NCBI GenBank assembly: GCA_937911295.1
Contig: CALDQE010000025.1
Location: 47,750 to 111,749 of the forward strand
Direction of reading: 5' to 3'
DNA: 64,000 nt
Source of the DNA: an uncultured Verrucomicrobiota bacterium
GTDB lineage: Bacteria; Verrucomicrobiota; Kiritimatiellia; RFP12; UBA3636
Shown here piece after piece: positions 614-36,705 of the stretch. A program made the translations under genes and the position numbers. The notes under the pieces were generated by a model that searched no databases, was not told the DNA's origin, and saw only the letters and a list, made by a program, of their open reading frames with translations. Position 1 is the stretch's first letter. The number at the start of each line of letters is the position of its first letter.

Positions 614-1564
614 TTACTGAATGTTATCAAATTGTTCTTTTGGTAAATTATTTAATGCATCAACAATTGAAGCAGCAAAACGCTTTATCATAAACGATTC
701 AACTTCTTGAATGTCATTAACTTTTACATATTCTGTATTATCAGAAATTGGTCCAGCAAAAGAAAGCACAGTTGGTAAACTTGTCGAAGAAATATAGCGA
801 TTAATTGCGGAAAAATATGATGTTGGCAATGGGTAGCACTCATTTGCACTTGACTTTGTATTTGCACCCCAAACCCAAACACCAAAATCAAAATAATGTT
901 GTTCGTCTTTAAAATACTGACCAATCTTGTTATAAGGAGCTTCTGCTATGATAACAGCAACATTAATCGGTTTACCATTTTCTGAAAAAAGTTCAGGATA
1001 TTGCTCTGAAAGATAATCATTAAGCATATCTGGATCTGTAGCAGTTGCTCCAAACCAAAATTTAAATACTTCACTAGATAACAAAGAATACATATTTCGT
1101 TGCTCTTCAGTAAGTTCAAATTCTTTTTCACTTTTATTTTTTGGAAGACACATTTCAGATAGCTCAAACTCTGATTTAGGCATAATAAGTGCATTCATAA
1201 AGCCAACCATTTGTAAACTTACTTTGCTTTCATCAACACCAAATAAATCAGCAGCATACATTTTTTCAGTTTCAAATACTTCTTGGTGCCCTTCCTTCAG
1301 TGCTTGTAAATTCTCATCGTAATTAAACAATTTTCTAAAAAATTTTGATTTGCCGGCGTTTTGATCATGTATCTCAATACTCTTAAATGGATTATGCATA
1401 CTACCCACATACACATTTTCAATTCGATACGGTTGCTTACTTTCTACTCTATTCGAGACTTGTATATTTTCAGGCTTAAATGAAGATTCCGCCAAATAGG
1501 TGGTACATCCAGTAAAGACAGATGTAAATAGAGTTACTAAAATCATTAAATAATTATTTTTCAT
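614..1564 (-). CDS. Hypothetical lipoprotein of 316 aa
   Basis: The N-terminus MKNNYLMILVTLFTSVFTGC is a lipoprotein signal peptide with a lipobox. It is the last complete gene of the secreted-protein operon. I recognise no domain in it. Confidence 0.55.
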   Translation of the reverse strand: MKNNYLMILVTLFTSVFTGCTTYLAESSFKPENIQVSNRVESKQPYRIENVYVGSMHNPFKSIEIHDQNAGKSKFFRKLFNYDENLQALKEGHQEVFETEKMYAADLFGVDESKVSLQMVGFMNALIMPKSEFELSEMCLPKNKSEKEFELTEEQRNMYSLLSSEVFKFWFGATATDPDMLNDYLSEQYPELFSENGKPINVAVIIAEAPYNKIGQYFKDEQHYFDFGVWVWGANTKSSANECYPLPTSYFSAINRYISSTSLPTVLSFAGPISDNTEYVKVNDIQEVESFMIKRFAASIVDALNNLPKEQFDNIQ

Positions 1565-1617
1565 AAGTTTTCTCCTTAAGTTTAGTTTAGTTTATACATT
1601 TATTTTGTAAGTTTACT

Positions 1618-2187
1618 TTATTCTTTAGTAATTTCTGACATATCGCTCCATACTACAAGACTTTTTTTTACGTCAATAAGTTGCAAAGACAATACATGAG
1701 AATACATATCTCCATTACGATAGCAACGATAAGTGCCTCTCAACAAATAATCTGCTGGTTGGCGAGAATCAAAAGCTTGTTGAGATGCAATGTCCATATC
1801 ATTTATTTTAGAATCTCTTGATATTTTAGATGCTAATTCTCGAGGATTAGTATCGGCAATAATTTCAAAAAGACCTGTCTCTTGAAGAGTTTTTAGCAAA
1901 TATTCTCTTACTAATCCTATTTCTCGAAATGATCTTCTGTTTGAAAAATTCGATATGCTATCTATTTGTAATGATGGTTTTTTATTTTTGTTTAATACCA
2001 CTTGCTCTTTGAAAGCTGCATCATCCTGCATTCTTTTAATCAGATCTACAACCATTGTTTCAATATCTGAAACGGTTATAGTTTCTGCAGTATTTAAACG
2101 CATACTATTTGAATTAACACGTTCCATATTTGCACCGCCTGCAACAACCACTGCGGACAAAAATAGTAGTGACAATAATATTTTCAT
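1618..2187 (-). CDS. LpoB-like periplasmic protein; a paralog of the next gene that has lost its lipobox cysteine
   Basis: It has a signal peptide, MKILLSLLFLSAVVVAGGAN, with Gly where the lipobox Cys would be. Blocks such as TMVVDLIKRMQDD and LQIDSISNFSNRRSFREIGLVREYLLKTLQETGLFEII resemble the C-terminal domain of E. coli LpoB (VDSVNNRTNGSL ... LRNALANNGKFTLVS). The C-terminus, VWSDMSEITKE, matches the paralog. Confidence 0.5.
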   Translation of the reverse strand: MKILLSLLFLSAVVVAGGANMERVNSNSMRLNTAETITVSDIETMVVDLIKRMQDDAAFKEQVVLNKNKKPSLQIDSISNFSNRRSFREIGLVREYLLKTLQETGLFEIIADTNPRELASKISRDSKINDMDIASQQAFDSRQPADYLLRGTYRCYRNGDMYSHVLSLQLIDVKKSLVVWSDMSEITKE

Positions 2188-2192
2188 ACTTT

Positions 2193-2786
2193 TTACTCCT
2201 TAGCAATCTCTGCAATTTCGCTCCATACCTGAAATCCTGTTTTTATGTCAATAAGCTTGAGTGTTAATTCATAGGTATATCTATCTCCATCTTCAAAAGA
2301 ACGGTAAATGCCATACATCTGATAATCTGCTGACTTATGAGTACCGAAAACTTGTAAATTATCGTCATTTTTTAGACCAACCTCCACATTCTTTGTTATG
2401 GATTCGGCAAGTGTTTCAGAAACTGATTCTTGAGAATTAGCATCATCCGTAATTTCAAATAGTCTTGTTTTGCGCAAGGCAATCTCTAATCTCTTTCTTG
2501 CAGAGTTGAGCTTTGGGATTATGCGCTCTTTTGCATGATTTTCAATATTTCCTATCTGCAACACCGGCTTAGCGTTTTTAGATGCTGCCAGCAAATCGTA
2601 ATGTTCTTTAAATGCTTCATCGTCTTGCATTTTTTCAACTAAATCTGCAACTGCCGTTTTTATATCATAAATTGTTTCATTACTTGCTTTATCGAAGTTA
2701 ACACTATTAGGATTTACATATCCGTGATTTGCACAGCCAGCGAATAATATTGCTGATAATGATAGTAGTGATAATATTTTTTTCAT
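2193..2786 (-). CDS. LpoB-like lipoprotein; tandem paralog of 1618..2187
   Basis: I moved the start to MKKILSLLSLSAILFAGC (lipobox LFAGC) at 2786. The longer ORF reaching 2963 would overlap the upstream gene. It shares TAVADLVEKMQDDEAFKE and a C-terminal VWSEIAEIAKE with its neighbour. Confidence 0.55.
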   Translation of the reverse strand: MKKILSLLSLSAILFAGCANHGYVNPNSVNFDKASNETIYDIKTAVADLVEKMQDDEAFKEHYDLLAASKNAKPVLQIGNIENHAKERIIPKLNSARKRLEIALRKTRLFEITDDANSQESVSETLAESITKNVEVGLKNDDNLQVFGTHKSADYQMYGIYRSFEDGDRYTYELTLKLIDIKTGFQVWSEIAEIAKE

Positions 2787-2799
2787 AATTTGTTCCTGT

Positions 2800-4440
2800 T
2801 TATTTACCGAAAACTGAGTTTTTTGGTTTGGATGAAGCTGAGTTATCATTTTTACGCTGTTGACCATAATTAGAATAAGGAGTTGTAGATTGCTCCACCG
2901 AAAAAACCTCTGGAGGTAAGTTAACTGTCCCAGTTGGAGTTGTATCTGCTCGAGAAGTTGCAAAACGCTCCACCTCTGCTCCTGTCATTGGTTTACCTGT
3001 TTGAGCATCGATTATGGACACAGAGCCGTCATCATTATACGAATAAGTAATCCCTGCATATTTAACATTCTTCTCTCTCAATTCTTGATTTATCTTATAT
3101 CCCCCCACATCAACTACACCATGAAATAGTGCCTCTTCCGGATTAGGATATTCATTATACGTACCCAATGTTTGTTTTAAATCAATTGTCCTTGTTTCTA
3201 AATTGTAAACTACTTCTTCTCCTGTGGAATTTTGAAATTTTGCATATTTTATACCTTTTTCACTATACTTTTCTAGGTATTGCTCTATTTGTTGGGGTTT
3301 TGTTATTCTTGTACTTGCGCTGAAAGCTTCTGCACCTACATCAGCACCCTCAAGAATACAAACTGCTACTGCACCAACGGGGCCACCAAAAACAGAACCT
3401 ACTAATCCACCTCCGACACATCCTAGAATAGTTCCCAATGCTGTTACTCCATTCTTCTTACTTTTCCGCTCTTCAAATTTGCTGACCGAGTTTATGTTGT
3501 CTGGTTGATGAAATTGATCTCCCAACACAAGACAAAAATCTCGTTGATTCCCATTACGAATCTCTCTCATCATATCGTCAGGAGTATAAGGAACAGCCAT
3601 ACCAATATTTTGTCCTTCATGTGTATTTGTCGCTATTTTAAATTTTTCCCGTTCATTAGCTCCAACAACTAAAACATCTTGCAATGAGCCTGACCATTCT
3701 TTCTTTGGGTCATAATTTGGGCTCCCCGGTTTATTGTATCTGAGTGCTTCTTTTAAGCCTCTTTCTTGATTTGGATTATAATTCTCTTTGAGAGTAGTGT
3801 TGTTTGTACCATCCTTATTACTAATTTTTTTTACCATATCAATTGCAGCGTCTATACCGTCAGATATTTTTTCCAAATTTTCCTCAACCGTTGGTTTTGG
3901 CTGTTCAACAGCAACTTCTGAAGAGGAACTATTAACACTTGGTATATCCAAGTTGGTTTGTGGCTTTTTGGTAGTAGTAGACGGTTTTGAAGTTGGTGTA
4001 CCTTGAGGCTTTGATGTTGGTGTACCTTGAGGCTTTGATGTTGTTTTAGGCTTTTGCTGATTAAGCTCGTTTCGAATATTTCCGAAATCAAGAACCATTT
4101 TTTCAAGTTCCATTCTACGTTTATTATCAGCAATTTTATCTTCAATAGTGTTTGGTGGAAGGATTTGAACTTGATTCTTACATTCTGTACACTCATAAAT
4201 CAGTATTCCAGAAATTACTCCTTGCTTTCTAACAAAGTTAAATGATAAACAATAATGCTTTTCTTCTAGACGTTTAAGATTTTGATTGAGGAGATTAGTA
4301 ACTGCTTCTTGTTCTTCTTGTGCTTGTTCTTGTGCTTGTTTTTCATCTATTGGTATAACTGGAGGAGCACCAAATGATAATGCTAGAGCGGAATTACAAA
4401 AAAACAATCCTAATATTGCGATTGTAATATAATTTTTCAT
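2800..4440 (-). CDS. Secreted protein with a PT-rich tandem-repeat linker and a C-terminal glycine-zipper segment
   Basis: It carries a signal peptide, MKNYITIAILGLFFCNSALA. The motif TSKPQGTP is repeated. A Gly-zipper stretch, LGTILGCVGGGLVGSVFGGPVGAVAVCILEGADVG, sits near the C-terminus. Its stop overlaps the next start by 4 bp (4437-4440). Confidence 0.6.
   Translation of the reverse strand: MKNYITIAILGLFFCNSALALSFGAPPVIPIDEKQAQEQAQEEQEAVTNLLNQNLKRLEEKHYCLSFNFVRKQGVISGILIYECTECKNQVQILPPNTIEDKIADNKRRMELEKMVLDFGNIRNELNQQKPKTTSKPQGTPTSKPQGTPTSKPSTTTKKPQTNLDIPSVNSSSSEVAVEQPKPTVEENLEKISDGIDAAIDMVKKISNKDGTNNTTLKENYNPNQERGLKEALRYNKPGSPNYDPKKEWSGSLQDVLVVGANEREKFKIATNTHEGQNIGMAVPYTPDDMMREIRNGNQRDFCLVLGDQFHQPDNINSVSKFEERKSKKNGVTALGTILGCVGGGLVGSVFGGPVGAVAVCILEGADVGAEAFSASTRITKPQQIEQYLEKYSEKGIKYAKFQNSTGEEVVYNLETRTIDLKQTLGTYNEYPNPEEALFHGVVDVGGYKINQELREKNVKYAGITYSYNDDGSVSIIDAQTGKPMTGAEVERFATSRADTTPTGTVNLPPEVFSVEQSTTPYSNYGQQRKNDNSASSKPKNSVFGK
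3973..4041 (-). repeat. In-frame 24-nt tandem repeat (ggtgtaccttgaggctttgatgtt, about 2.5 copies) that encodes the TSKPQGTP linker repeats
   Basis: The direct repeat is visible in the sequence between 3970 and 4050. Confidence 0.7.
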
Positions 4441-5882
4441 TGTAGAATATTCCCAATAGCTTTAATTCCTTCAATAATGCTTTTGCCTGTATCCACACCA
4501 GTCTTAACAGCTTCTAGCCCATCAATAAGCGACGGAGATGAGGGCTGTGTTTGTGTATCTACTGGTTGTTGTGATTGTTGAATAGGTGCTTGTACTGGTT
4601 GTACAGGCTGTTGCTGCACTGGAGTATAGCTATTTTCTTGTGGTTGTTGTTGCTCAAGAGGGATTGCAACACCTACATCTGTATTGTCATGACGCTCACG
4701 TTGTGACTTTTCTTCCTTGGATTGCTTCTCATTTGTTTTAGCATCTTCATCTCCATCTGTTTCTACATCATCATCCGCACCTGATGAAAGAGGTGAAGGT
4801 GCTGCTTCTGCATCATTCAACCCTAATGCAGAACCTGCTTGATTAAGTAAATCATTTGTAGAAGTACCTACCCCTTCACCGTTCTTATCTGGATTCAAGC
4901 CAAAATCTGGCATTTCACAATCTCTCATTGATAAAACCTGAGGCATACCATTTAAGCGTGTATATGAGCTAGATAAATATTCACCATAGCCTCTTGCACG
5001 TAGCAATCGAACTTGGTCATCTGTTGCTCCTGATTTCTCAATTCTATCCATTAGTGCATCAAAATGCTTGTCCTCTTTACGAATCTTTCTACCCTCTTCG
5101 TTTTCGCGTAAAACAACCATGAATGTGGTTCCTTCTTGAAGCTTAGCACGCACTTCAAATGGTGTTGTATATGGATATGAAATTTTTACATTATGAAGTC
5201 CATCTGAAACCTTAACCTTGAGAGGTGCTTCACCAATTGTTCCTGCTGTTCCATAAGAAACACCATCAATAGACACATCTGCACCAGGGAAATTACATCC
5301 AAATGCTACCTCTATAAGCTTTATCTTCATGTCTTTCCATGCAACCTTTTCACATTTTGCTAGAAATTCTTTGGATGCCTTTGCGACAAGATTTTCGACT
5401 AAATCATAATAAATAGAATCTGCATCTTGAGAAAGCATTGACGGAGTAAACGTCCTTGAGACCTCTGTAACAGTTACAGAAGCAACATTTGCCCCTTTGG
5501 GAATACGCTTTGCAGACAATGTAAGCCTCATTTTTACAGCATTAGCTTTTGCTGGACTACCATAACTGATGATTGATGTTTCACCTACTGCTGCAGTAAT
5601 CAAAACCTGTGCCTCCAAATTCTCAGCCAAGCGTGTAGCAGAGGAAAGTGGCATATTTTCACCCCATGGACCACGATTTTGCTGCTCTCCAATCACATCA
5701 TTTGGATCAATTATATTAAAAAGCTCTTGTGAAAGTTCAGCAGAAATTGCATCACCTAGATTGGATAATGGCTTTTGATATTCATCTGACGCATGGTTTT
5801 GAACAATCAAAACAGCATCAATAGGCTCAGAAACAACAAAACTTGCAAAAAAACAGATAACTAATAATAGAAAATTTTTCAT
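4437..5882 (-). CDS. Secreted protein with a PEGA-like domain and a Q/P-rich C-terminal tail
   Basis: It has a signal peptide, MKNFLLLVICFFASFVVSE. The segment GADVSIDGVSYGTAGTIGEAPLKVKVSDGLHNVKISYPYTTPFEVRAKL fits the PEGA pattern. The C-terminus is low-complexity: QQQPQENSYTPVQQQPVQPVQAPIQQSQQPVDTQTQ. Confidence 0.55.
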   Translation of the reverse strand: MKNFLLLVICFFASFVVSEPIDAVLIVQNHASDEYQKPLSNLGDAISAELSQELFNIIDPNDVIGEQQNRGPWGENMPLSSATRLAENLEAQVLITAAVGETSIISYGSPAKANAVKMRLTLSAKRIPKGANVASVTVTEVSRTFTPSMLSQDADSIYYDLVENLVAKASKEFLAKCEKVAWKDMKIKLIEVAFGCNFPGADVSIDGVSYGTAGTIGEAPLKVKVSDGLHNVKISYPYTTPFEVRAKLQEGTTFMVVLRENEEGRKIRKEDKHFDALMDRIEKSGATDDQVRLLRARGYGEYLSSSYTRLNGMPQVLSMRDCEMPDFGLNPDKNGEGVGTSTNDLLNQAGSALGLNDAEAAPSPLSSGADDDVETDGDEDAKTNEKQSKEEKSQRERHDNTDVGVAIPLEQQQPQENSYTPVQQQPVQPVQAPIQQSQQPVDTQTQPSSPSLIDGLEAVKTGVDTGKSIIEGIKAIGNILQ

Positions 5883-5909
5883 TAATATACTCCTAATATT
5901 TTTTAATCA

Positions 5910-6299
5910 TTAAAGAGGACGAATCGTCAATTTAAATTCTTTAGCATCGGGTAATGGACAAACACCTTGAATTACAGCCTCCTCTTTGCCTGTTAAATAG
6001 AAAATTTTCCATCCCTGTGTTGCGGATTTTATGACCATCCCATTCTTGTCATACCAAGTAAATTGATATTGAAAATTTATATCCTTATCATACTTATTTT
6101 TAATAGTAATTTGAGTTTTCAGAAAATCACCATCCAAAACAATAGGTCGTTCTTCTATCAACTCAACAAAGGATGCAAAGGAATAACTTTCTATAATAAT
6201 ATTCCCTTTTTTCAATGAAATACCAGCGGTAGTTGGTGCAACACATCCGACTACAAGACCAAAAACACATACAGATAAAAACATAGTAAAAATTTTCAT
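5910..6299 (-). CDS. Small lipoprotein of 129 aa, YcfL-like (DUF1425-type)
   Basis: The lipobox reads VFGLVVGC. Its size and its beta-rich composition are typical of YcfL-family lipoproteins. Confidence 0.45.
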   Translation of the reverse strand: MKIFTMFLSVCVFGLVVGCVAPTTAGISLKKGNIIIESYSFASFVELIEERPIVLDGDFLKTQITIKNKYDKDINFQYQFTWYDKNGMVIKSATQGWKIFYLTGKEEAVIQGVCPLPDAKEFKLTIRPL

Positions 6300-6312
6300 A
6301 AAGCAATCTCCT

Positions 6313-6981
6313 TTAAAAACCTAAATTCATAATTGGGAAAAACTCAAGTGACGAACCTTCATTATAATTACCAAGACCTATTTGTAATCCTTCAAAATTC
6401 TTTGCTGAGTTCCAAACACCCAATTGAACCCCACTTCCAGCTCTAGCTATATTCACTAAACCTAGCTGCAAACCGCTAAGTTCAGTTGCACGATTTAAGA
6501 CACCTATCTGTAAACCTGTCAACACTCCGTCAGTTGAATTTAAAATCGATGCTGCTTGCACCCCATAGAAATCACCAATGGATCTATTGACTATTCCAGC
6601 AAACTGTAGAGCTCCGTCTGAATACCCTATTTTATTATAAATTCCAGCACTTTGAACCCCGATAAAATTATTCTTTACTTCATTACCAACACAACCGAGA
6701 TCCAACCCATAAACATTATTGTGACGCCCAACAAATATGTTAATTCTCAAAAAGAAAACATCCCAATTTTCGGCAGGAATTTCAACACCAGGGAATAAAC
6801 CAATAGCAAATGGGCAGGTTCCTTCTCCAATTTCGCTGGATTTTTCTGTCAAATCCCTTACTTTAGCAGTGCCATTTTGGTATGCAGAATTATTCTGTTT
6901 AAATGAGTTTACTCGTACAACATCTGCTGTTGCAGTGATTGCCACACAGCAAACGGCAAACACGAAAAATATCTTTTTCAT
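6313..6981 (-). CDS. Secreted repeat protein with seven G-[LV]-Q-x-G-x-x-N-x-A units (curli-like Q/N motif)
   Basis: It has a signal peptide, MKKIFFVFAVCCVAITATA. The imperfect repeats include GVQAASILNSTDG, GLQIGVLNRATELS, GLQLGLVNIARAGS, GVQLGVWNSAKNFE and GLQIGLGNYNEG. It is the first gene of the operon. Confidence 0.6.
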   Translation of the reverse strand: MKKIFFVFAVCCVAITATADVVRVNSFKQNNSAYQNGTAKVRDLTEKSSEIGEGTCPFAIGLFPGVEIPAENWDVFFLRINIFVGRHNNVYGLDLGCVGNEVKNNFIGVQSAGIYNKIGYSDGALQFAGIVNRSIGDFYGVQAASILNSTDGVLTGLQIGVLNRATELSGLQLGLVNIARAGSGVQLGVWNSAKNFEGLQIGLGNYNEGSSLEFFPIMNLGF

Positions 6982-7059: not shown

Positions 7060-7100
7060 AAAGCCTCCCTTTATATCTTAAGAGAGGCCGTGAGAGTGCC
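7060..7100 (-). terminator. Weak rho-independent terminator downstream of 7436..9544
   Basis: On the minus strand there is a hairpin, gcctc-N-gaggc, followed by ttttt. It lies about 340 nt after the stop codon. Confidence 0.25.
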
Positions 7101-7435: not shown

Positions 7436-9544
7436 CTAATTTGATTTACCTACAAATATGTCTGGCCAACTGTCATTGGAGGTATTGTAGGTTATACGAA
7501 GAGTCTGTTTTGTCTCTACATTCATAAGAAATATCTCATAATCACAACTATCCTGCTCATGTCCTCCTGTACTTGCTCCATATACAAGCCAGTTACCATC
7601 CGGAGAAAAACGAGGGAAATACTCGTGACTAAAATCACTTTCTGAATCAAAAAATATTTTTCCTGGCGGATTTAATGCATCACACCAAAAGATGCTATTC
7701 TTTTGCTTGCCCGGATGGTTCATATATGCAAATTCTGTACTGCCGCTCTTTCTCCAAACTGCCTGACACCCAGAATCTATCTTTTGAAGCTTCTTCCCAT
7801 CCTTAGATATGCTTGCAATATAATTCATACGACCTCGAAGTGTTACAAGAAGGCTTGGCTCTGTATCATTTATATCTGGAATTGTAAGCTGTGTTCCTTC
7901 TAAAATTGGAGCAACTCCACTTTTTAATATTACTCTATCCTCTGTGGTAATAACACCATTTTTTTCAATTATTGTTGCTTGAACCAGCTCTGATGCGTCA
8001 TTACGCATAAAAACTACCGAATGCCCACTTGGATCCCAAACAGCCATAAACGCATTTGTTGCAAGCAAACACTCTTCCCCCTTTTCAAAATCGTACAAAT
8101 ATGTATCCCATTTACTCATATTTCTAAGGGATACCCATGGCTCTGTAGAACGAGAGAAAACAAATTTAGTTCCATCAGGAGAAAGCTTTGGATATGTATC
8201 TGTAAAGCCAGAATTAGTTAGGCGAGTAATTTCTCCAGAAGCAATATCCTGAGAATAAATACTATGCAAGCCATCCCTATTTGAACTCCACACAATTCTT
8301 CCCGCAAGTCCATTTAAAAATTCAGCCCTATGCTGAAGCTCTTCGGCAGGGATTTCTATACTACTACCCTTTGGTGGCGGGGTAAGGCGTCCTCCCTTCA
8401 CAAAGCTACGATACGACAAAAGTAAAAAGCCAAATGCTATTGCTATTGTGCTAAGCAATACTCCAGCACGTAGCATAGCTTGCCATGTGATTTTCTTATC
8501 GCATTTTGTCTTCTCAGCAATTTCTGCATTACTGTCTGTTTTCCAGACAAAAGCAATCAAAGATATAGCACCCAATGAATAATCGATAATTTGGCTAATA
8601 AAGTGCATTGCGAACATAGCAATTACAACAAACTTTAATGACGCTTCACCAAAGCCCATGAGCTTAAAAGCTGAGATACCACCAGTTTCATAAGTACCAA
8701 AGCTCATAAAAGAAGGAACTGGCAATGCTGCAGAGCCTTCAGCACCTATTAGAGCCAGAACCACCTGTGAGCTCGATGCTGCTGCCAATTCAGCAGAAAG
8801 AGGTATAACAACCGACTGAAACAAGAATAACAAACCAGCATATTTACATGCTCTTACACACACAGACAGGAGCAATACCTGTAAAAGCTTACCACTCTTT
8901 CGCACAGCAACAACAGAAGTGGCTGTATCTTCTAATAGATTAAACAGAGCAACCAAAAATTTTGGGAGCGATGTGAAGCGTGCTTTTATTCGAGCTGCAA
9001 GTTTACCAAAACAAGGTAAAATATAAAATATTCCAACACCCCCAATAATGCATAGCAATACTAGCATTATTACTGAGCCAAGTAGCGAAATACTATTGGT
9101 TGCCATTGGTAGAGCAACAGCAAATACTAATAATAATCCAATAAAATCAAAAAGCAAAGATATAGAAAGAGAAGAAAGACCATCGGCTACAGCAATGCCA
9201 CAGCCTCGCTTTAGCAGTGCAACATAGCTCAATTCACCTATTCTCGCAGGAAGCATATCTACAAAAGCTCCACGAACGAAGGTTACAAGAATCATTGGTG
9301 TGAGTTTTACTTCTGTACCAGCACTCTTGAGCAAAATCTTTGCTCTAATCGCTCTAAAGAAGGTCTGCAATATTTGGCAAATAAGGTATATTGCAACATA
9401 AAACATAACTGCTGATTTTGCTGCATCTACAATTGTAACAATAGACACATCCCCATTCTCGCCAGAAACAAGCTTAAGCAGTAAGCCTACAAGAATAATT
9501 GAAACGATAATTGAGGCAACAAATTTTATAATACTTTTCTTCAT
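7436..9544 (-). CDS. Fusion protein: an N-terminal polytopic flippase-like domain of the lysyl-phosphatidylglycerol-synthase TM type (UPF0104) joined to a C-terminal TolB-like (PD40) beta-propeller
   Basis: The first ~330 residues have multiple TM helices and a flippase-like pattern (FVRGAFVDMLPARIGELSYVALLKRGCG). The C-terminal half has PD40-like repeats: LSPDGTKFVFSRS, FSPDGNWLVYGAS and WSSNRDGLHSIY. Confidence 0.6.
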   Translation of the reverse strand: MKKSIIKFVASIIVSIILVGLLLKLVSGENGDVSIVTIVDAAKSAVMFYVAIYLICQILQTFFRAIRAKILLKSAGTEVKLTPMILVTFVRGAFVDMLPARIGELSYVALLKRGCGIAVADGLSSLSISLLFDFIGLLLVFAVALPMATNSISLLGSVIMLVLLCIIGGVGIFYILPCFGKLAARIKARFTSLPKFLVALFNLLEDTATSVVAVRKSGKLLQVLLLSVCVRACKYAGLLFLFQSVVIPLSAELAAASSSQVVLALIGAEGSAALPVPSFMSFGTYETGGISAFKLMGFGEASLKFVVIAMFAMHFISQIIDYSLGAISLIAFVWKTDSNAEIAEKTKCDKKITWQAMLRAGVLLSTIAIAFGFLLLSYRSFVKGGRLTPPPKGSSIEIPAEELQHRAEFLNGLAGRIVWSSNRDGLHSIYSQDIASGEITRLTNSGFTDTYPKLSPDGTKFVFSRSTEPWVSLRNMSKWDTYLYDFEKGEECLLATNAFMAVWDPSGHSVVFMRNDASELVQATIIEKNGVITTEDRVILKSGVAPILEGTQLTIPDINDTEPSLLVTLRGRMNYIASISKDGKKLQKIDSGCQAVWRKSGSTEFAYMNHPGKQKNSIFWCDALNPPGKIFFDSESDFSHEYFPRFSPDGNWLVYGASTGGHEQDSCDYEIFLMNVETKQTLRITYNTSNDSWPDIFVGKSN

Positions 9545-9750: not shown

Positions 9751-10755
9751 TTATAAACCAACCAATATATCGCGAAGCTTAGTGCGAACCTCATCAAGAG
9801 ACATCCCTGTTAAGGAAGCACCCGCTGCACGAGCATGACCACCGCCACCAAGCCTTGCACAAATTGCAGCTGCGTCGTATGGCTCTTTTGTGCGCAAGCT
9901 TATGTTTACAGGTGCATTAGGGAATGGTTGACGAATAAATGCAGCCATTTCTACCCCACGTATAGAGCGGACAATATCCACAAAATTCTCTGAATCAGAG
10001 CCTATGCAACCCTCTGCAGCAAAATCTTCGCTTGTTAGAAAACCAACAGCAATTTTGCCATTACACTCAACTGAAATACTCTTAATTAGGCGTTGTTGGA
10101 GCATTAGTCGCTTCAGTGGCTGGCTTCCATATATTTGCTCATTAATATACTCAGTGCGTACTCCTTGAGCAGCTAGCTTTGCGCCTATCTCAAGGGTAAG
10201 AGGTGATGTACAGCTATAAGCGAAACGACCAGTATCGGTCACTATACCCGTCCAAAGTGCTTCAGCTATTGCTCTATCAAAGTGGCAATGTGGCATGGCA
10301 GCAAGAAGCTGATAAACCAATTCACTAGAAGCAGCAGCATCCTCGTCTATCAAAGCTTTCTTTGCAAAGCCATCGATATAACCCTTATGGTGATCTACAC
10401 AAAGGGAGACACCAATCTTTGGAAAAACTTCCTTTAATTCATCTGGCAAGCGCTTTGCTGTATTGCAATCAACAACAATTAGAAAATCATCATCCTTCAA
10501 TTGGTCCACTGTTAGGACATATTCCATTCCTTGGAGAAATGCGTATTCTGGGCGGAGCTCATTAAAACCAATGCAATGAGCATCAAAGCCCTGTGTACGC
10601 AAGCCCAAGCACAAACCGAGAGCAGTGCCATAAGCATCACCATCTGGGTTAATATGTGCAGAAATCACAATTCTTGTGGCAGGGTCTACTGCTGCAAGAT
10701 ATGAGGCTGCAGCTTTTAGCTGCTCAGCAAAATTATTCTCTTTAGACTCACTCAT
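9751..10755 (-). CDS. nrnA: DHH-family phosphoesterase (NrnA-like bifunctional oligoribonuclease / pAp phosphatase)
   Basis: The DHH motifs ISAHINPDGDAYGTALGL and CVDHHKGY are present, and the C-terminus has the DHHA1-like GGGHARAAG. Confidence 0.75.
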   Translation of the reverse strand: MSESKENNFAEQLKAAASYLAAVDPATRIVISAHINPDGDAYGTALGLCLGLRTQGFDAHCIGFNELRPEYAFLQGMEYVLTVDQLKDDDFLIVVDCNTAKRLPDELKEVFPKIGVSLCVDHHKGYIDGFAKKALIDEDAAASSELVYQLLAAMPHCHFDRAIAEALWTGIVTDTGRFAYSCTSPLTLEIGAKLAAQGVRTEYINEQIYGSQPLKRLMLQQRLIKSISVECNGKIAVGFLTSEDFAAEGCIGSDSENFVDIVRSIRGVEMAAFIRQPFPNAPVNISLRTKEPYDAAAICARLGGGGHARAAGASLTGMSLDEVRTKLRDILVGL

Positions 10756-11902
10756 TTTCTATCACCTTACTAAAGCAATTATCACGAGCCCAACGTAGCT
10801 CACCAAGAAGCCCCTCTTTAATATCAGTTGTGGCACCACTACAGCTATTCCAGACCTCCCATGTATAGGTCTCGCACTCAAAGTGCTTACAGCCAGAGGC
10901 AGCAAGTGCTGCAGCAAAATCGGCAGTCTTCAGCTCCTCTGCTGTGCTTCCTAATAAGCCTGTTGGCGTGACATATAATGGCACATGGAAATGGACTCTA
11001 AGCTCGGCACCTTTTGAAGGAGCAATATTTAGTGCAGCAGGAATGTCATCTGCACGAGTAATAATGCCATCAGCAGTGCGATGAACTGTCTGGTGCAAAT
11101 ATGTGCTCTCATTGTATTGCGCAAGGATTGCTCTACCCTCAACAGTATCAGGAAGCACCATAGCTGCACTTAGCTGCACCTTGCCTATAAAGATGCCGTT
11201 TGAGGAAAGTTCACGCACAGCGGCTGCTAAATTTTCAAATTCAACGCTTTGGTGAGCAGTATCAAAGCAAATACCGAGATAGCGCTCTAGCTCTGGGGTT
11301 AGCCCTGCTGCTCGGAGCTGCTTAAAGAAATCAATTAGCTCAGGCGTTGTTTCTGGATAGCAGCCAGGCTCTGCCTCAATACAAAGCACAATGCGTTTAC
11401 CATACCTCTCTTCCACAGACTGCAAATGCTTTGCCGCACGAATATAATTTTCTATTGCCTTTGTATGAGGTTCATTCCATGCCTTAAAATTTGCTGGAGA
11501 GGTAGAGATGCTTCCGTATTCAACTGTATCAGGAAGAAGCTGAGCGAGAATATTTGCAGAGCGTTTTGTATATTCTAGGCGCTCCTCCATATCCCATGCA
11601 GGGCGATATACCTCGTCCTTTACTTGGACGCCATGAAAAGTACCAAAAGGAAAAGCATTCATTGTGAATGCAAAGAGGCGGTTGCTACGCATTAGCTGCA
11701 AGAGAGCTTGAAGTAAAAAAGGATTTGCTGTCAGTTCATCAACTGCTTTTGCTGCAAGTCGTAAACCAACACCAAACCGCTCACCGGGCATTGAGAATTC
11801 TTTACCAATTGGTGCTGCAAAATCAGTTATTGCTTGCATGACATCGCCAATGCCTTCGCCCTTATGAACATTCATGCAATATGTTAAATACTTTTTACTC
11901 AT
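10748..11902 (-). CDS. Xylose-isomerase-like TIM-barrel protein, EboE-like
   Basis: It is 384 aa long and its N-terminus, LTYCMNVHKGEG, is typical of EboE-type sugar-phosphate isomerase/epimerase TIM barrels. It overlaps nrnA by 8 bp and lies immediately downstream of nfo. Confidence 0.45.
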   Translation of the reverse strand: MSKKYLTYCMNVHKGEGIGDVMQAITDFAAPIGKEFSMPGERFGVGLRLAAKAVDELTANPFLLQALLQLMRSNRLFAFTMNAFPFGTFHGVQVKDEVYRPAWDMEERLEYTKRSANILAQLLPDTVEYGSISTSPANFKAWNEPHTKAIENYIRAAKHLQSVEERYGKRIVLCIEAEPGCYPETTPELIDFFKQLRAAGLTPELERYLGICFDTAHQSVEFENLAAAVRELSSNGIFIGKVQLSAAMVLPDTVEGRAILAQYNESTYLHQTVHRTADGIITRADDIPAALNIAPSKGAELRVHFHVPLYVTPTGLLGSTAEELKTADFAAALAASGCKHFECETYTWEVWNSCSGATTDIKEGLLGELRWARDNCFSKVIENE

Positions 11903-11933
11903 AGCATACCCTTGTTCTACTTAGCACATTACA

Positions 11934-12779
11934 CTATTGGCGTAAACTTTTTAGTAGTGCAATTTCCTTTGCATAGCCATCTAGCTCATTTGGTGTTTCC
12001 AAAAGGAATGGAAGCTGACGTAGCTTAGGGTGATTGATTACACGGGCAATTGCATCTAAAGGAAGCTGCCCCTCGCCAAGCTTTGCGTGACGGTCCTTAT
12101 GAGCAGCAAGCGTATTCAAGCTTCCATTAAGATGAATTGCCTTCAGACGATTAAGACCAATAACACTATCAAACTCAGCAATCACACCATCCAAATCTGA
12201 AACAATATCATAGCCACCATCCCAAATATGGCAGGTATCGAGGCAAACACCAAGCTGCTGAGACAGCTCCACATTATCAATAATTGTGCGAAGCTCCTCA
12301 AAGCTTCTACCTATCTCACTGCCCTTGCCAGCCATTGTCTCTAGCAAAACAAGTGTGCTCTGCTCTGGAGAAAGGATGCGATTTAATAAATCACAAATTA
12401 ACTCAATGCCCTTTTCTACACCCTGCTGCACATGGCTACCAGGATGAAAGTTATAGTAACTATTTGGTGTATATTCAAGACGTTTAAGATCATCTGACAT
12501 CACCTCAAAGGCAAAATCACGAATGCGTTCATCTGCTGCACAAGCATTAAGAGTATAAGGTGCATGTGCAACAATTGGTCCAATATCATTCTCTTCTGCC
12601 AATTTCAGATATGCATCAATATCCTTTTGCGAAATAGGCTTTGCGGCACCACCGCGTGGATTGCGGGTAAAAAATTGAAATGTATTTGCACCTATCTCAA
12701 GGGCTGTTTTACCCATAGCCAAATAGCCATTTGAGGAAGACAAATGGCACCCTACCTTAAATACATCTGTATTATTCAT
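11934..12779 (-). CDS. nfo: Endonuclease IV (AP endonuclease family 2)
   Basis: It has [26 protein letters not shown]...[11 protein letters not shown] and FLLETPNE, and it aligns with E. coli Nfo along its whole length. Confidence 0.85.
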
Positions 12780-15887: not shown

Positions 15888-18800
15888 TTATTCCTCTGGC
15901 AATGTAATAAACATTGACCAGCTGATTACATACCAACCATTCTCAATACGTGTTAGAATTGTATTGCGACCTTTTCTTAGGTGAACCTTGCGGAAGCCCT
16001 CATTAATTCGCCAATATTTTAGTTCGTTAGTACTACTCCAAACCTTATAGTCGTTAATCCAAACGTCCATACGGTCATCACTACCAACGGCTACCCAGTA
16101 ATCACCCTCTTCTTCCATGAAGACCTCTGTGTATGCATACCAGATACCATACTGATCCTGAGACCATGGGCGAATCTCAGCACCACCATGTAGGTTATAT
16201 GCATTATACTCCCACTTGAGAATTTGTCCATCCTTACCAACGTAAGTTGCATCTAAATCAACCTTACTTTCTGGTGCAAACTTACGGGTCAGGTTAACGC
16301 GATTTGGATTAGGGAAAGGTCCAATAATATACCAATTTGAGATGCGGGCCCATTTTGCTGGCACACCAGAATTACCAATAAAGTTACCAGTTACTAAGCC
16401 CTCCATGCCTCTCTTCAAGGCAGGAACACCCATACCCTCTGCAGTACCGCCACGGACACCCTTTTCTGAAAGTCCCTTAACACCGGTCATATCCTCTGCT
16501 TTAACCTTTGTAGGAATCCATTTTGATGATCCAGCATTGCTTGATCTACCACCTAGCTTTGCATATGGGCTACCACCACGAGTATTATTCCCTTGTGAAT
16601 TAGAAGAAGCAGGATGCATGCTAGATTGAGCAAACTGCTGAGAGGTTCCTTGTCCATTTTGAGAACCCATTCGAGCATCTGCTTCAGCCATCATGCTAGA
16701 CAAATCCTTAGCCTGTTGAGAAGAATCCTCTGAGCCTGCTTCTTTAATTTCATTTGCCATATCAGAGAATTCATACATACGAGACAATCGCTCTTCGCGA
16801 GACATCGAACCTCCCTTAGAATAATTAGAATTATATCTATCTGGGAATACCATTACCTCAGCCTCAGCCATCACGCTCTTGGCAACAGCACTAATATTCT
16901 CTGCTTCACGAACAACCTTTGTCATCTCCTCACGCTTATTCAAGAACTCTTGCTCTGTTGAAGGCTCTGATGAAAGTAATGATTTATCAAACTCTGGGCG
17001 AATAGTTTTTGCAACATCTGTTATTTCAATCGCCTGAGATAATGGCATTTTTTGAGTAATTGCAAGCTCAGTAGCCTTTATATCACGATTCTTTTCTGCA
17101 ATCTGACTTTCTAGCTCCTTTGCCATTTCATAAGCTTCAGACAGAGGCAAGCGAGAAAGCATTGTATTTGCCAACTCAGGAGACTCCATTGTTGGGTCAG
17201 CAAAAGGCTCAGGTTGAGCGGATTCACTAGCGGCAAGCTTTGCAACATCCTTAACCATTTCCATCAATGCTTTTTGAGCTTCAGAAGCTTTATTATCCTT
17301 TTCATCAAGCTTCTTTGCCTTTTCTGCGGCAGCCTTTTCTAGTTCTTTCTTCTTTGCTTGAAGCTCTTCTGTATACTTCTTCGAGCGCTCCTCTTGGCTC
17401 TTCTTGTGATTCAAATCACGCTCAGCATTTGAAAGAGAAATCTGAGCATTACGATCCTTTTGTCTAGCAGAATTTAGCTGATCATTCTTTTGACGAAGGT
17501 TAGACTCAGCTTCATTGCGAGAGGTTTGAGCAGCCTTTTGTGATTGCTCTGCAGCAGTATATTGCTCCTTCTTTTCTTCAAATTTTTGCTTAGCCTCTGC
17601 CTGTTTTTGTTGTGCTTCTGCAAGCATCTTTTCACGTTGCTCACCAATCTTCTTCTCACTAGCCAGCTCGCGCTCACGGCCTTTAGTCCTTTCAGAGGCA
17701 TTGTGATGCTCCTGCCTAGCTTGGTCTGCAGCACGTTTTGCATTATTCTGCTTATTATTAGCATCATTTAAAGCATTCTTGCTAGCATTGCTATTTTTCT
17801 CAGCCTCTTGCTTATTCTTTTCAGCTTGGGCTAGCTCCTGATTTGCTTTATCAAGCATCTGCTTTTTCTCAGCTTCTGACTTTTTAGCATTTTCGAGATT
17901 TGCTTTTGCTTTGGCGATTTGCTCTTCGCTTTTCTGTTGATTCTTCTGAGCATCCGCTAGCTCACGTTCGCTCTTTTTAGTAGCTTCGTTAGCACGGTTC
18001 AATTCATTTTTAGCATTTTCTGCAGAACGCTTTGCTTCATTTAATTTATTATTAGCATCATTTAAAGCATTCTTGCTATCGTTACTCTTTTTCTCTGCGT
18101 CTTGCTTTTGTTGCTCAGCTTGAGCAAGCTCTTGATTTGCTTTATCGAGCTTTTGCTGTTTTTCTGCTTCAGCCTTCTTAGCACTTTCTAGCTCACGCTC
18201 TGCATTTGCTGTTTTATCCTTTGAAGCCTTTAACTCATCCTGACGCTTTTTCGCCTCATTATCCTTATTGCGGGCATCATTTTCAGCTTGATTACGCTCA
18301 TTTCGAGCCTTATTCAATTCATTATTGGCATTATTAGACTTTTGGTTAGCCTCATTACGTTGCTTTTCTGCTTCTTGCTTCTGTTGCTCTGCTTGCGCAA
18401 GCTCCTGAGCTGACTTTTCCTTTTCTTGGCGTTTTTCTTCTAAAGTCTTTTCAGCTTTTTCACGATTTGGCTTATATTCATTTTCAAACTTTTCTGCTTC
18501 CTTCTTTTGCTCCTCATAATTAGCATTTATAAGCTCATTATCCTTACGCAAATCCCAAACCAACTGCTTACTTTCTGCTTGAAGAGCATTTACCTCTTGC
18601 TGTGTCTTAAAGGCAGTTTGAGCTGCCTTTGTGGTTTTCTCCATTCCCGTAATTTCAGCCTTAGCAGCAATAACATCAAGCAAATTCTGGGCTAATGCTT
18701 GTGCTTGCTCGGCATCCTTAAAGCTTTGTTCATTCTTGTTTACAGCATTTGCGATTTGCTGGACAGCCTCTTGAGTTGCTGCTTGCTCTTGCATATCAGC

Positions 18801-19319
18801 AAGATCCTCGATAAAGGCTTCTGACTCTTGCTGATTTTCAAGGCTTACCTCTTGCTGCTCAATAACAGCCTCAAAAAGCTGCTCCATCTCAGACTTAACT
18901 TGCTCTGACTCCTGCTGAGCCATTTCATCATAATCCTTTAGAAGTTCATTCTTCATAAACTCCATATTGTGGAGGATTGTTTGTAGCTCCTCGAGATATT
19001 GAGCAATCTCATTTTCTCTTGCTTCCTCTACCTCTTCAGCAAGATCCTGTAGCTGCTCCTCGCTCATACGAGAAAGCTGTGATGGGGACTCCTGCTTCTT
19101 TTCTTTGATAATAATCTCACGTAGAGGTGTAAAAATCACCAAAAGAATAAATCCTATAATATGGAGAATCAATGATAATGTGGGCCAAACAGCCGCCATT
19201 CGGCGCTGAACCTTTTGTCTCTCTTTAATATCATCAGAGAAGAGCTTATGTGTAGTAGCATCGTGATTATCATTTGTGCTTTGTTTTGTATCTATATCGT
19301 TATTGAAATTTTCACTCAT
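15888..19319 (-). CDS. Giant protein of 1143 aa: a TonB-like signal anchor, about 900 aa of coiled coil with roughly 100-aa internal repeats, and a C-terminal PA14-like domain
   Basis: The anchor, RRMAAVWPTLSLILHIIGFILLVIF, compares with E. coli TonB WPTLLSVCIHGAVVAGLLY and carries the SxxxH motif. The C-terminus has AVGSDDRMDVWINDYKVWSS...LRKGRNTILTRIENG, which resembles the PA14 core. It is a paralog of 19341..21791. Confidence 0.65.
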   Translation of the reverse strand: MSENFNNDIDTKQSTNDNHDATTHKLFSDDIKERQKVQRRMAAVWPTLSLILHIIGFILLVIFTPLREIIIKEKKQESPSQLSRMSEEQLQDLAEEVEEARENEIAQYLEELQTILHNMEFMKNELLKDYDEMAQQESEQVKSEMEQLFEAVIEQQEVSLENQQESEAFIEDLADMQEQAATQEAVQQIANAVNKNEQSFKDAEQAQALAQNLLDVIAAKAEITGMEKTTKAAQTAFKTQQEVNALQAESKQLVWDLRKDNELINANYEEQKKEAEKFENEYKPNREKAEKTLEEKRQEKEKSAQELAQAEQQKQEAEKQRNEANQKSNNANNELNKARNERNQAENDARNKDNEAKKRQDELKASKDKTANAERELESAKKAEAEKQQKLDKANQELAQAEQQKQDAEKKSNDSKNALNDANNKLNEAKRSAENAKNELNRANEATKKSERELADAQKNQQKSEEQIAKAKANLENAKKSEAEKKQMLDKANQELAQAEKNKQEAEKNSNASKNALNDANNKQNNAKRAADQARQEHHNASERTKGRERELASEKKIGEQREKMLAEAQQKQAEAKQKFEEKKEQYTAAEQSQKAAQTSRNEAESNLRQKNDQLNSARQKDRNAQISLSNAERDLNHKKSQEERSKKYTEELQAKKKELEKAAAEKAKKLDEKDNKASEAQKALMEMVKDVAKLAASESAQPEPFADPTMESPELANTMLSRLPLSEAYEMAKELESQIAEKNRDIKATELAITQKMPLSQAIEITDVAKTIRPEFDKSLLSSEPSTEQEFLNKREEMTKVVREAENISAVAKSVMAEAEVMVFPDRYNSNYSKGGSMSREERLSRMYEFSDMANEIKEAGSEDSSQQAKDLSSMMAEADARMGSQNGQGTSQQFAQSSMHPASSNSQGNNTRGGSPYAKLGGRSSNAGSSKWIPTKVKAEDMTGVKGLSEKGVRGGTAEGMGVPALKRGMEGLVTGNFIGNSGVPAKWARISNWYIIGPFPNPNRVNLTRKFAPESKVDLDATYVGKDGQILKWEYNAYNLHGGAEIRPWSQDQYGIWYAYTEVFMEEEGDYWVAVGSDDRMDVWINDYKVWSSTNELKYWRINEGFRKVHLRKGRNTILTRIENGWYVISWSMFITLPEE
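17550..18413 (-). repeat. Three diverged in-frame tandem repeats of about 300 nt (roughly 100 aa each) inside the coiled-coil gene
   Basis: The protein repeats ANQELAQAEQQKQ(D/E)AEK(K/N)SN(D/A)SKNALNDANNK...AKR. The DNA segments at about 17741-17880 and 18040-18180 are visibly similar. Confidence 0.65.
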
Positions 19320-35988: not shown

Positions 35989-36705
35989 ATGAACAATAAC
36001 GCACAAACAACTAAAATAATGATTCTAATTCCTTGCTTTAAAGAGGAATCAGCTATACGAAATGTTGCAACCCAAGCCATTCAAACTGGCTTAGGTGATG
36101 TTGTTGTTGTTGATGATGGCTCACCAGACAACACAGCCAATGAAGCACGTGCTGCTGGTGCAAATGTTATTGTCCATGAAATTAACAAGGGGAAAGGTGC
36201 GGCTATGATTACTGGCTTTTCATATGCTCTAGAGCATAGCTATGATGCTGTTATCACCATGGATGGCGATGGACAACATGCACCAACAGAAATAATTAAC
36301 TTTGTTAATGCATGGAAGCAGACTGGTGCCGACATGATTGTTGGCTCTCGCATGGCAAACACAAAAGGCATGCCTTTTATTCGGTTGCTCACAAATAAAT
36401 TTATGAGCTGGCTCCTAAGCAAAGCTCTTGGGCAAAAGGTCTCTGATACGCAAAATGGCTTTAGACTTTATACCGCAAAGATACTTCCTATTTGCATCAG
36501 CTGCTCCTCTGGTGGTTTTTCTGCAGAGTCAGAGCATTTGCTCCAGGTTTCACTACATGGTTATCGCATAGCGGAAGCCCCTACATCTACTATATATGGG
36601 GAAGAGAAAAGCAAAATCCGCCCAGTTCGCGACACTATCCGGTTTTTTAAGATGCTTTCTCATTTTAATTCAGAAAAGCGTAAATTCAAGAAAGGACAGC
36701 ACTAG
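35989..36705 (+). CDS. Family 2 glycosyltransferase (polyprenol-phosphate sugar synthase-like)
   Basis: MILIPCFKEE...VVVVDDGSPDNTA...DGDGQH carries the GT2 DxD and DXDG motifs. Confidence 0.8.
   Translation: MNNNAQTTKIMILIPCFKEESAIRNVATQAIQTGLGDVVVVDDGSPDNTANEARAAGANVIVHEINKGKGAAMITGFSYALEHSYDAVITMDGDGQHAPTEIINFVNAWKQTGADMIVGSRMANTKGMPFIRLLTNKFMSWLLSKALGQKVSDTQNGFRLYTAKILPICISCSSGGFSAESEHLLQVSLHGYRIAEAPTSTIYGEEKSKIRPVRDTIRFFKMLSHFNSEKRKFKKGQH

Follow-up and report, generated by a model that had tools for sequence, protein, structure and literature searches.

An MprF-type membrane domain joined to a PD40 beta-propeller in a conserved, uncharacterised family of bacterial inner-membrane proteins

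Results

A single gene encodes the membrane domain and the propeller

The DNA analysed here, hereafter called the window, is a stretch of 64,000 nucleotides from contig CALDQE010000025.1 of an uncultured Kiritimatiellia bacterium (phylum Verrucomicrobiota). Between positions 7436 and 9544 of its minus strand lies a gene whose product joins a membrane domain of the lipid-translocating type to a beta-propeller. The gene is a single open reading frame (ORF) that runs from an ATG at 9544 to a stop codon at 7436-7438, contains no internal stop, and encodes 702 amino acids. ORF translation, Pfam searches and homologues of the same length divide the protein into a PF03706 domain, an extra transmembrane (TM) helix and a PD40 propeller. 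The AlphaFold2 (AF2) model of the full-length protein (pLDDT 85.7), for which an alignment of 50 sequences was used as input, likewise contains a helical membrane domain, one more TM helix and 24 strands.

A first-pass annotation, made from the sequence alone, had read this gene as an MprF-type membrane domain without the C-terminal aminoacyl-transferase, followed by PD40 repeats. Profile searches assigned both halves in the same manner (PF03706 and PD40 propeller, respectively), and neither Pfam nor NCBIfam gave any match to the aminoacyl-phosphatidylglycerol synthase domain (DUF2156, LPG_synthase_C) in the 702-residue protein at E ≤ 0.1. The domain order recurs in other genomes: a word-indexed protein search retrieved more than 120 full-length homologues of about 700 residues, with identical Pfam order and 36-93% identity.

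The existence of separate versions of both halves in other organisms might raise the suspicion that the fusion is an artefact, be it a mis-joined assembly, two genes read through as one, or a pseudogene in decay. The likelihood of such an artefact is negligible, and we exclude it because the fusion is conserved across genomes. The homologue with 93% identity, also 702 residues long, and the 88% identical protein of the closest genome, a Kiritimatiellae metagenome-assembled genome from roe-deer rectum, come from independent assemblies and share the architecture, while full-length homologues are found by the hundred in several phyla. Besides, the reading frame is intact, residue conservation is strong in both halves, and the junction consists of a linker and a TM helix, precisely what a periplasmic C-terminus requires. 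The gene therefore encodes a genuine, conserved and uncharacterised member of an inner-membrane protein family.

The membrane domain

Residues 1-335 (positions 8540..9544; this and all other segments of the gene are on the minus strand) were identified by Pfam, AF2, Foldseek and hhalign as the lipid-translocating membrane domain known as PF03706, PplT or UPF0104. The Pfam match to LPG_synthase_TM (PF03706) covers residues 12-319 and 299 of the 302 profile positions (1-299), with 75.9 bits and E = 4.9e-21; the gathering cutoff is 33.4 bits, and the homologues P0024, P0093, P0179 and P0191 also match above it. In the AF2 model, the domain consists of eight long helices together with two hairpins that are conserved and contain many buried charged residues. 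Helical segments span residues 2-27, 47-74, 81-97/100-115 (the first hairpin), 119-148, 154-189, 195-217 (amphipathic), 220-249, 258-272/284-295 (the second hairpin) and 300-335.

The two hairpins are the best-conserved segments of the membrane domain. The first (residues 81-115, positions 9200..9304) carries the motif R91..D96.LP99.R101.G103E104..Y107; R91, D96, P99, R101, G103, E104 and Y107 are invariant in and around it. Its mean top-residue frequency is 0.81, with at least 90% at 18 of 35 positions. The second hairpin (residues 258-295, positions 8660..8773) reaches a mean of 0.83 and at least 90% at 20 of 38 positions, with E269, P275, P277, F279, F282-G283, Y285-E286 and G288-G289 as invariant residues. 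When the membrane domain was aligned by hhalign with the stand-alone PF03706 family encoded next to the fused gene in some relatives (91% probability over 288 columns), the hairpin motifs fell on the LPxxxGGDxY and GxGxR(D/E) motifs of the stand-alone proteins, and the motif of the first hairpin matched LPSNIGGDSY. The sharing of these motifs argues that the translocating core is intact and under selection.

A separate AF2 model of residues 1-392 (pLDDT 83.8, pTM 0.79) was compared with the PDB using Foldseek. The six best matches were all MprF structures from Rhizobium etli, R. tropici and Pseudomonas aeruginosa (7f47, 7duw, 9j8q, 6lvf, 9goe and 9j8s), with probabilities of 0.93-1.0 and a best TM-score normalised by the query (TMq) of 0.49. 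Every other match had a probability below 0.35, which leaves MprF as the sole credible fold relative. The kinship of the membrane domain with MprF is thus real, and it is distant.

The junction and the predicted topology

The membrane domain is followed by a variable linker rich in lysine and arginine (residues 336-353, positions 8486..8539), with a conservation of 0.20. It is predicted to be cytoplasmic and appears disordered at residues 339-352 of the AF2 model (pLDDT <50). Hydropathy (peak 2.12) and AF2 place an additional TM helix at residues 354-383 (positions 8396..8485), which would cross from the cytoplasm to the periplasm and is the counterpart of the helix that anchors the stand-alone propellers described below at their N-terminus. 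A juxtamembrane linker (residues 384-414, positions 8303..8395) with a conserved KRGRLTPPP in the consensus and a short helix at 400-410 in the AF2 model connects this helix with the propeller.

In 50 homologues, the mean content of lysine plus arginine (K+R) is 4.5, 8.3 and 4.9 in the loops at residues 64-82, 181-221 and 334-358, and it does not exceed 1.5 in those at 28-46, 146-156, 248-258 and 294-301. Given this distribution and the odd number of membrane crossings, we infer a cytoplasmic N-terminus and a periplasmic propeller, with one dissonant basic segment that is considered in the Discussion.

The propeller

Residues 415-698 (positions 7451..8302) form a six-bladed PD40 beta-propeller according to AF2, Foldseek, profile searches of the PDB and Pfam. 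Its 24 strands are arranged in six four-stranded blades, and the final strand closes blade 1. The PD40 match has E = 1.6e-9 in the whole protein and 1.5e-11 in the C-terminal part alone, where a weak match to the DPPIV_N propeller is also found, and SPDG occurs at residues 455-458 and 647-650. In the Foldseek search of the PDB with the full model, TolB (2ivz_C) ranked on top (E = 2.8e-11, TM-score normalised by the target 0.56, around 15% identity), and the family profile retrieved Atu1656 (1.8e-10) and TolB (6e-9) from the same database.

The first-pass annotation had described this half as a TolB-like periplasmic propeller. The description is right for the fold, as TolB is the nearest solved structure, and helix parity and K+R content agree with the periplasmic location; as a statement of orthology, it fails. 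The score against the TolB equivalog TIGR02800 is 56.6 bits, with about 100 propeller residues aligned, while the cutoff is 343.15; moreover, both the TolA-binding domain and the tol-pal context are missing. A TolB orthologue can thus be ruled out.

Conservation is unevenly distributed among the blades. Blades 1-2 (residues 415-497, positions 8054..8302; conservation 0.67 and 0.75) carry VWSSNRxGxH and the family-specific loop FSRSxEPWVSQRNxxKWD. Blade 6 (residues 640-691, positions 7472..7627), with SHEYFPRxSxDG and GASTGGHEQDxxDYEIFLW, is the best conserved (0.76, with at least 90% at 27 of 52 positions), whereas blades 3-5 show values of 0.42-0.50 only. GC(Q/E)xxW, SHEYFP, GGHE(Q/H)DxxDYEIFLW and NDxWPD are, like the loop of blades 1-2, motifs specific to the family. 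All these motifs are kept in propellers that stand alone or are fused to other membrane regions (P0183 and P0201, see below), and the signature is therefore intrinsic to the propeller rather than part of an interface with the PF03706 domain.

G592-C593 and D633 are invariant in blade 5, shortly before blade 6. Cys593 (codon 7766-7768) is the lone invariant cysteine, with no conserved partner, in a domain predicted to be periplasmic, and the invariant H640, H662 and D633 are near it in strand order. As far as strand order can tell, C593, D633, H640, H662, R423 and R465, all invariant, map to the D-A and B-C loops, which constitute the canonical ligand or active-site face of propellers. Cys593 may form a metal or catalytic site together with H640, H662 and D633, and the invariant patch of polar, cysteine and histidine residues could equally be a ligand-binding or catalytic site as the docking surface suggested by the first-pass annotation.

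One explanation of this patch is that the propeller is a periplasmic enzyme, for instance a metal-dependent hydrolase, deacylase or transferase, that acts on the flipped head group. Such a "flip-then-modify" protein would be the mirror image of MprF, where modification comes first and flipping second. In line with an enzyme, the most conserved residues (C593, D633, H640, E641, H662, E663, D665, D668, R423, H427, R465, S472 and R474) are polar and lie, by strand order, on loops that open to one face of blades 5-6-1-2; a lone invariant periplasmic cysteine cannot serve as a structural disulfide partner; the signature survives in stand-alone propellers and in the P0201 and P0183 fusions; and oligogalacturonate lyase and lactonases appear among the lower-ranked fold matches. 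However, the propeller models PD40, DPPIV_N and Tricorn_N-type were the only ones matched, with no enzyme family among them, the top fold match, TolB, is non-enzymatic, and part of the conserved positions are generic positions of the PD40 repeat. On these grounds, we consider an enzymatic propeller unlikely. A more specific and improbable speculation sees the propeller not as passive but as a periplasmic domain of a new kind, with a catalytic or metal-binding function (invariant Cys593, His640, His662 and Asp633 plus an acidic cluster), which acts on a lipid-linked sugar just flipped by the MprF-type domain. If this were true, a flip-then-modify system of envelope modification would exist across PVC bacteria (the Planctomycetota-Verrucomicrobiota-Chlamydiota group), cable bacteria and some Gammaproteobacteria, and further polytopic enzymes (P0201, and the neighbours of c10 proteins, see below) would have incorporated this propeller too.

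Distribution, split forms and alternative fusions

When one genome per GTDB species was scanned, relatives were confirmed in 357 of 185,579 species genomes, with matches that extend over roughly residues 1-698, and 80 loci, with most of the protein covered, were kept. The fusion, which the first-pass annotation had called unusual, is therefore rare, although not unique. Carriers are found in at least five phylum-level groups and include Kiritimatiellia, Lentisphaerae/Victivallales, Verrucomicrobiota, Desulfobulbaceae (among them the cable bacteria Electrothrix and Electronema), Arenicellales, Acidiferrobacterales, Eiseniibacteriota and Auribacterota. A phmmer search of 1.84 billion cluster representatives gave 173 matches at E ≤ 1e-30, and the family is thus small and well apart from generic PF03706 and PD40 proteins.

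Several variants of the architecture were detected among these matches. A second full-length subfamily shows 25-30% identity (e.g., P0179 and P0192). There are also proteins of around 345 residues made of the membrane domain only (P0188 and P0191), and anchored propellers of around 340-360 residues, in which this propeller follows a single N-terminal TM helix (P0190, P0200, P0202 and P0219). In locus L089, the two modules are encoded separately, and the last 11 nt of the PF03706 gene coincide with the start of the gene for an anchored propeller; in sequence terms, this pair is the present protein cut exactly ahead of the extra helix at residues 354-383, which is the cut point in split forms. 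The occurrence of the same two modules as a split pair and as a fusion is strong evidence that they work together. P0191 was considered as half of another split pair and discarded, as the next gene encodes an oligoribonuclease and not a propeller; hence, genuine stand-alone close relatives of the membrane domain exist.

The propeller is also found with other partners. In P0201 (L090:155-3859), a protein of 1234 residues, it lies at the end of a different polytopic region of 930 residues, the last 140 of which resemble the C-terminal beta domain of ArnT-like "c70" proteins. In P0183 (L091:226-1674), four TM helices accompany the signature propeller.

Members of the family are labelled in databases as [quoted passage not shown], "YbhN family" or "Tol biopolymer transport system component". 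In the literature searched, we found neither a description of a PF03706-propeller fusion nor an experimental characterisation of the family, in agreement with the first impression that the architecture was uncharacterised. The PplT survey counts 148 architectures and discusses the ten commonest; as fusion partners it lists enzyme and kinase domains, and propeller, PD40, TolB and periplasm are nowhere mentioned.

Gene neighbourhoods in relatives

Clustering of the ORFs of the 80 loci was followed by neighbourhood counts, which cover the 73 loci with a recovered fused gene (31 from PVC bacteria and 42 from other bacteria). A characteristic gene order is found in Desulfobulbaceae and their allies: GDSL hydrolase, AsnB-like amidotransferase, epimerase of the short-chain dehydrogenase/reductase type, hexapeptide acyltransferase, stand-alone PF03706 protein (around 325 residues), fused protein, ArnC/PgfS-like family 2 glycosyltransferase (GT2), more GT2s and a WbaP-like phosphoglycosyl transferase. 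In these clusters the genes overlap or are separated by tiny gaps, and family 4 glycosyltransferase (GT4) genes are also present among the surrounding sugar-modification genes.

A full-length match to the ArnC equivalog (256 bits) was obtained for the ArnC-like GT2, which has two C-terminal TM helices, a feature typical of polyprenyl-phosphate glycosyltransferases. Its gene lies immediately downstream of the fused gene in 13 loci and within 10 kb in 28 of 73 (24 of 42 non-PVC, 4 of 31 PVC). The stand-alone PF03706 gene is immediately upstream in 20 loci, and within 10 kb in 20 of the 42 non-PVC and 2 of the 31 PVC loci. In Kiritimatiellota bacterium B12222 (L021, a complete genome), genes for a GT4, a PF03706 protein, c10, an epimerase, an acyltransferase and AsnB adjoin the fused gene; hence, the linkage recurs across phyla.

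A glycosyltransferase of the GT-C type, ArnT/GT39-like and about 940 residues long, is encoded immediately upstream of the fused gene in L038 and L047, and nearby in L079. Its own match to PMT_2 is sub-threshold (17 bits), and its relatives match PF13231 (PMT_2) and are named GT39 or 4-amino-4-deoxy-L-arabinose transferase-like. The family that we call c10 is also polytopic: full-length members have around 840-1030 residues, about seven TM helices, a C-terminal extracytoplasmic region of around 430 residues and the invariant motif LWPGDSH...VNGY. No match to c10 was found in Pfam, NCBIfam or PDB profile searches. Genes for c10 adjoin the fused gene in seven loci (L021:2575-5160, L018:7448-9979, L019:6863-9952, L037, L067, L071 and L079) and a gene for a stand-alone T-type propeller in L086 (1530-4088). 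The shorter c10 members lie at locus ends and are probably truncated.

Two additional neighbours deserve mention. In L085 (14284-17181), a Desulfobulbaceae-type cluster with the fused gene, genes for a DUF2079 membrane protein, a small LAB_N membrane protein and a short GT2 lie together, and this group could be a second lipid-linked sugar module of the locus. In a gut PVC relative (L081:9450-10004), the start of the fused gene shares 4 nt with a gene for a DUF6580 membrane protein of 184 residues; this protein, of which nothing was seen in the window, may be an operon partner specific to that lineage.

Surroundings of the gene in the window

In the window, the fused gene is separated from its neighbours by 206 bp upstream and 454 bp downstream. 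A terminator-like hairpin was detected by consensus scan in the downstream gap (7062..7089, minus strand), with a 10-bp stem of which 5 pairs are GC, followed by the T-run TTTTTATT; it is a pattern match only.

Downstream, at 614-6981 of the minus strand, lies a run of genes for predicted envelope lipoproteins: an LA_2272/VC2662-type repeat protein (6313-6981), DUF1425/YcfL (5910-6299), a PEGA-domain protein with a long low-complexity tail (4437-5882), a protein of 546 residues (2800-4440), two tandem LpoB-like proteins (2193-2783 and 1618-2187) and a lipoprotein of 316 residues without family match (614-1564), all on the minus strand. The GC content of this run is 0.31-0.37, compared with 0.40-0.46 upstream of the fused gene. 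The ORF for the first LpoB-like protein can be extended to a TTG start (2193-2963), in which case it overlaps the 3' end of the ORF at 2800-4440 by around 160 nt; since the LpoB domain begins only past an internal methionine near 2783, the true start is probably internal. Within the ORF at 2800-4440, TSKPQGTP repeats are encoded by 2.4 tandem copies of a 24-nt unit (3986-4043).

On the upstream side are genes for a DHH/DHHA1 phosphoesterase, two AP_endonuc_2 TIM barrels, HisF, QueA and a family 9 glycosyltransferase. The AP_endonuc_2 (xylose-isomerase-like) pair occupies 10748-12779; the gene for the first barrel, whose match is weak and under the cutoff (22.6 bits), overlaps the DHH/DHHA1 gene by 8 nt. 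Further away, at 15888-19319 of the minus strand, is a gene for a protein of 1143 residues without Pfam match, with one N-terminal TM helix, a C-terminal globular region and a very long coiled-coil-like region rich in alanine, glutamate, lysine and glutamine, in which "ELAQAEQQKQEAEK / NALNDANNK" segments are repeated. This gene causes an extreme AT skew (-0.48) at 17.5-18.5 kb. The ORF that comes next (19341-21791, 816 residues) has no family match.

Conservation of the window neighbours beside the gene is limited to the 88% identical relative, and three other PVC contigs also show unrelated neighbours. An operon formed with the downstream lipoprotein genes was considered and found to be unsupported, given the 454-bp gap with its terminator-like hairpin and the lack of conservation of the neighbours; the hairpin weakly suggests that the fused gene is transcribed separately from the lipoprotein genes after it. 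Promoter-like sites were not in excess (9 found, 8.0 expected by shuffling), and no Rfam match was obtained in the whole window.

The setting of the gene in the window bears on a second explanation, namely a general role as a phospholipid scramblase or in membrane homeostasis, similar to that of YbhN/PplT of Escherichia coli. The propeller would then be a TolB-style module that docks onto a protein or peptidoglycan and places scrambling at envelope contact sites, for example to supply phospholipid to the outer membrane. PF03706 domains that lack a cytoplasmic enzyme partner have in fact been proposed to be bulk-lipid translocases (preprint 10.1101/2022.03.11.483950; PMC11980842). The nearest solved fold of the propeller is that of TolB, the gene stands alone, with no glycan genes near, in the window and in most PVC relatives, and in the window it adjoins a cluster of envelope lipoproteins (two LpoB, YcfL and PEGA). 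However, that cluster accompanies the gene only in the window and in the 88% identical relative, the propeller is not an orthologue of TolB and has no TolA-binding domain, and the neighbours conserved in two or more phyla are enzymes for lipid-linked sugars rather than phospholipid or Tol-Pal genes. A general scramblase is, in our opinion, a rather unlikely identity for the protein.

Discussion

Domain identities, conservation of the fusion, split forms and gene neighbourhoods are observed, whereas the topology, the substrate class and the role of the propeller are inferred. The interpretation that we tentatively favour, with somewhat less than even confidence, is that the protein translocates a lipid-linked sugar or glycolipid while the propeller couples translocation to a periplasmic partner or acceptor. 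By analogy with the loci of relatives, the most likely substrate would be a polyprenyl-phosphate-linked sugar or glycolipid. The membrane domain would flip this compound, made at the cytoplasmic face, and the propeller, on the exit side, would expose a conserved polar face on blades 5-6-1-2. The ligand of this face might be the head group after flipping, the acceptor, or a membrane enzyme working as a partner, for example the ArnT-like GT-C or c10.

A number of observations weigh against this interpretation. The fold match with MprF is modest (E = 6e-3 to 0.13, TMq ≤0.49), and a search of the PDB with the family sequence profile returned propellers only and no MprF; for this reason, the link with MprF rests on Pfam and on the fold. 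The segment at residues 379-400, past the last TM helix, is basic (4.4 K+R), which is atypical of the periplasm. The GT-C link is found in 3 of 73 loci. Most PVC relatives lack the partner genes nearby, as the counts for the ArnC-like gene (4 of 31) and the PF03706 paralogue (2 of 31) indicate. In the 64-kb window, searches for ArnC-like, stand-alone PF03706, AsnB, epimerase, acetyltransferase, c10 and GT-C partners yielded a single candidate, a short GT2 (35989-36705) located 26 kb away and devoid of C-terminal TM helices. Because the window and most PVC loci are without partner genes, the proposed substrate is borrowed from other lineages.

PF03706 is, to our knowledge, the only dedicated lipid scramblase/flippase fold of bacteria for which structures exist. 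It has been studied chiefly as MprF, and its stand-alone and fused relatives are largely uncharacterised. The fusion partners described so far (aminoacyl-phosphatidylglycerol synthase, glycosyltransferases and kinases) are understood as cytoplasmic enzymes that feed the translocating domain. What sets the present architecture apart is that its partner domain is predicted to lie on the exit side. With its conservation across phyla, its split forms and alternative fusions and, in some lineages, its loci for lipid-linked sugar pathways, the family offers a handle on how flipped lipid-linked substrates pass to the periplasmic machinery, and also on whether bacterial MprF-type domains act as flippases of polyprenyl-phosphate sugars. 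It may have a bearing on envelope modification in Kiritimatiellia of the gut and rumen and in cable bacteria.

Comparison with known systems places the fused protein close to MprF in its membrane half. Both share PF03706, the fold, two hairpins flanked by long TM helices and, by prediction, a cytoplasmic N-terminus. In contrast, MprF has an aminoacyl-phosphatidylglycerol synthase domain and a second transmembrane domain (TM9-14), and the fused protein has neither: a single further TM helix (residues 354-383) follows the PF03706 domain. The partner domain is cytoplasmic in MprF and predicted to be periplasmic here, and nothing links the fused protein to the tRNA-dependent aminoacylation of lipids. 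MprF of P. aeruginosa (PaMprF) is a promiscuous, energy-independent scramblase, and the substrate preference of the MprF PF03706 domain is thought to stem from the fused or neighbouring enzyme (PMC11980842).

Stand-alone PF03706 proteins such as YbhN/PplT of E. coli, GpgF of P. aeruginosa, HexF of Clostridioides difficile and HpnL have the same membrane domain. However, they end after it or bear cytoplasmic enzymes, and none has been described with a periplasmic propeller; in archaeal AglD, the PF03706 domain is C-terminal to a cytoplasmic glycosyltransferase. The resemblance extends to gene context, as stand-alone proteins and, in some lineages, the fused family are encoded near enzymes for sugar-modified lipids or for sugars linked to dolichyl phosphate (Dol-P) or undecaprenyl phosphate. 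GpgF and HexF are predicted glycolipid flippases of the PF03706 family (PMC12713373; PMC10128005), and archaeal UPF0104 proteins, encoded with AglD-like Dol-P-sugar synthases and PMT/STT3-like enzymes, are predicted to flip lipid-linked sugars (PMC5898192).

With TolB, the fused protein has in common a six-bladed PD40 propeller in the periplasm, its own location being predicted. TolB is soluble, has a TolA-binding alpha/beta N-terminal domain and belongs to the tol-pal operon; the fused protein lacks these features, is tethered to the inner membrane and has a propeller with signature motifs of its own.

A last comparison can be made with three-component systems of lipid-linked sugar transfer (ArnC/ArnE-F/ArnT, GtrB/GtrA/GtrC and PgfS). 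Some loci of relatives have an ArnC/PgfS-like glycosyltransferase beside the fused gene and, in a few cases, a GT-C, whereas in the window none of the other parts is linked. Their flippases are of the GtrA or small multidrug resistance type, while the candidate presented here, likened to them by gene neighbourhood only, has an MprF-type membrane domain and, in addition, a propeller. The logic that would be shared is to make the compound on the inner face of the membrane, flip it, and transfer it outside.

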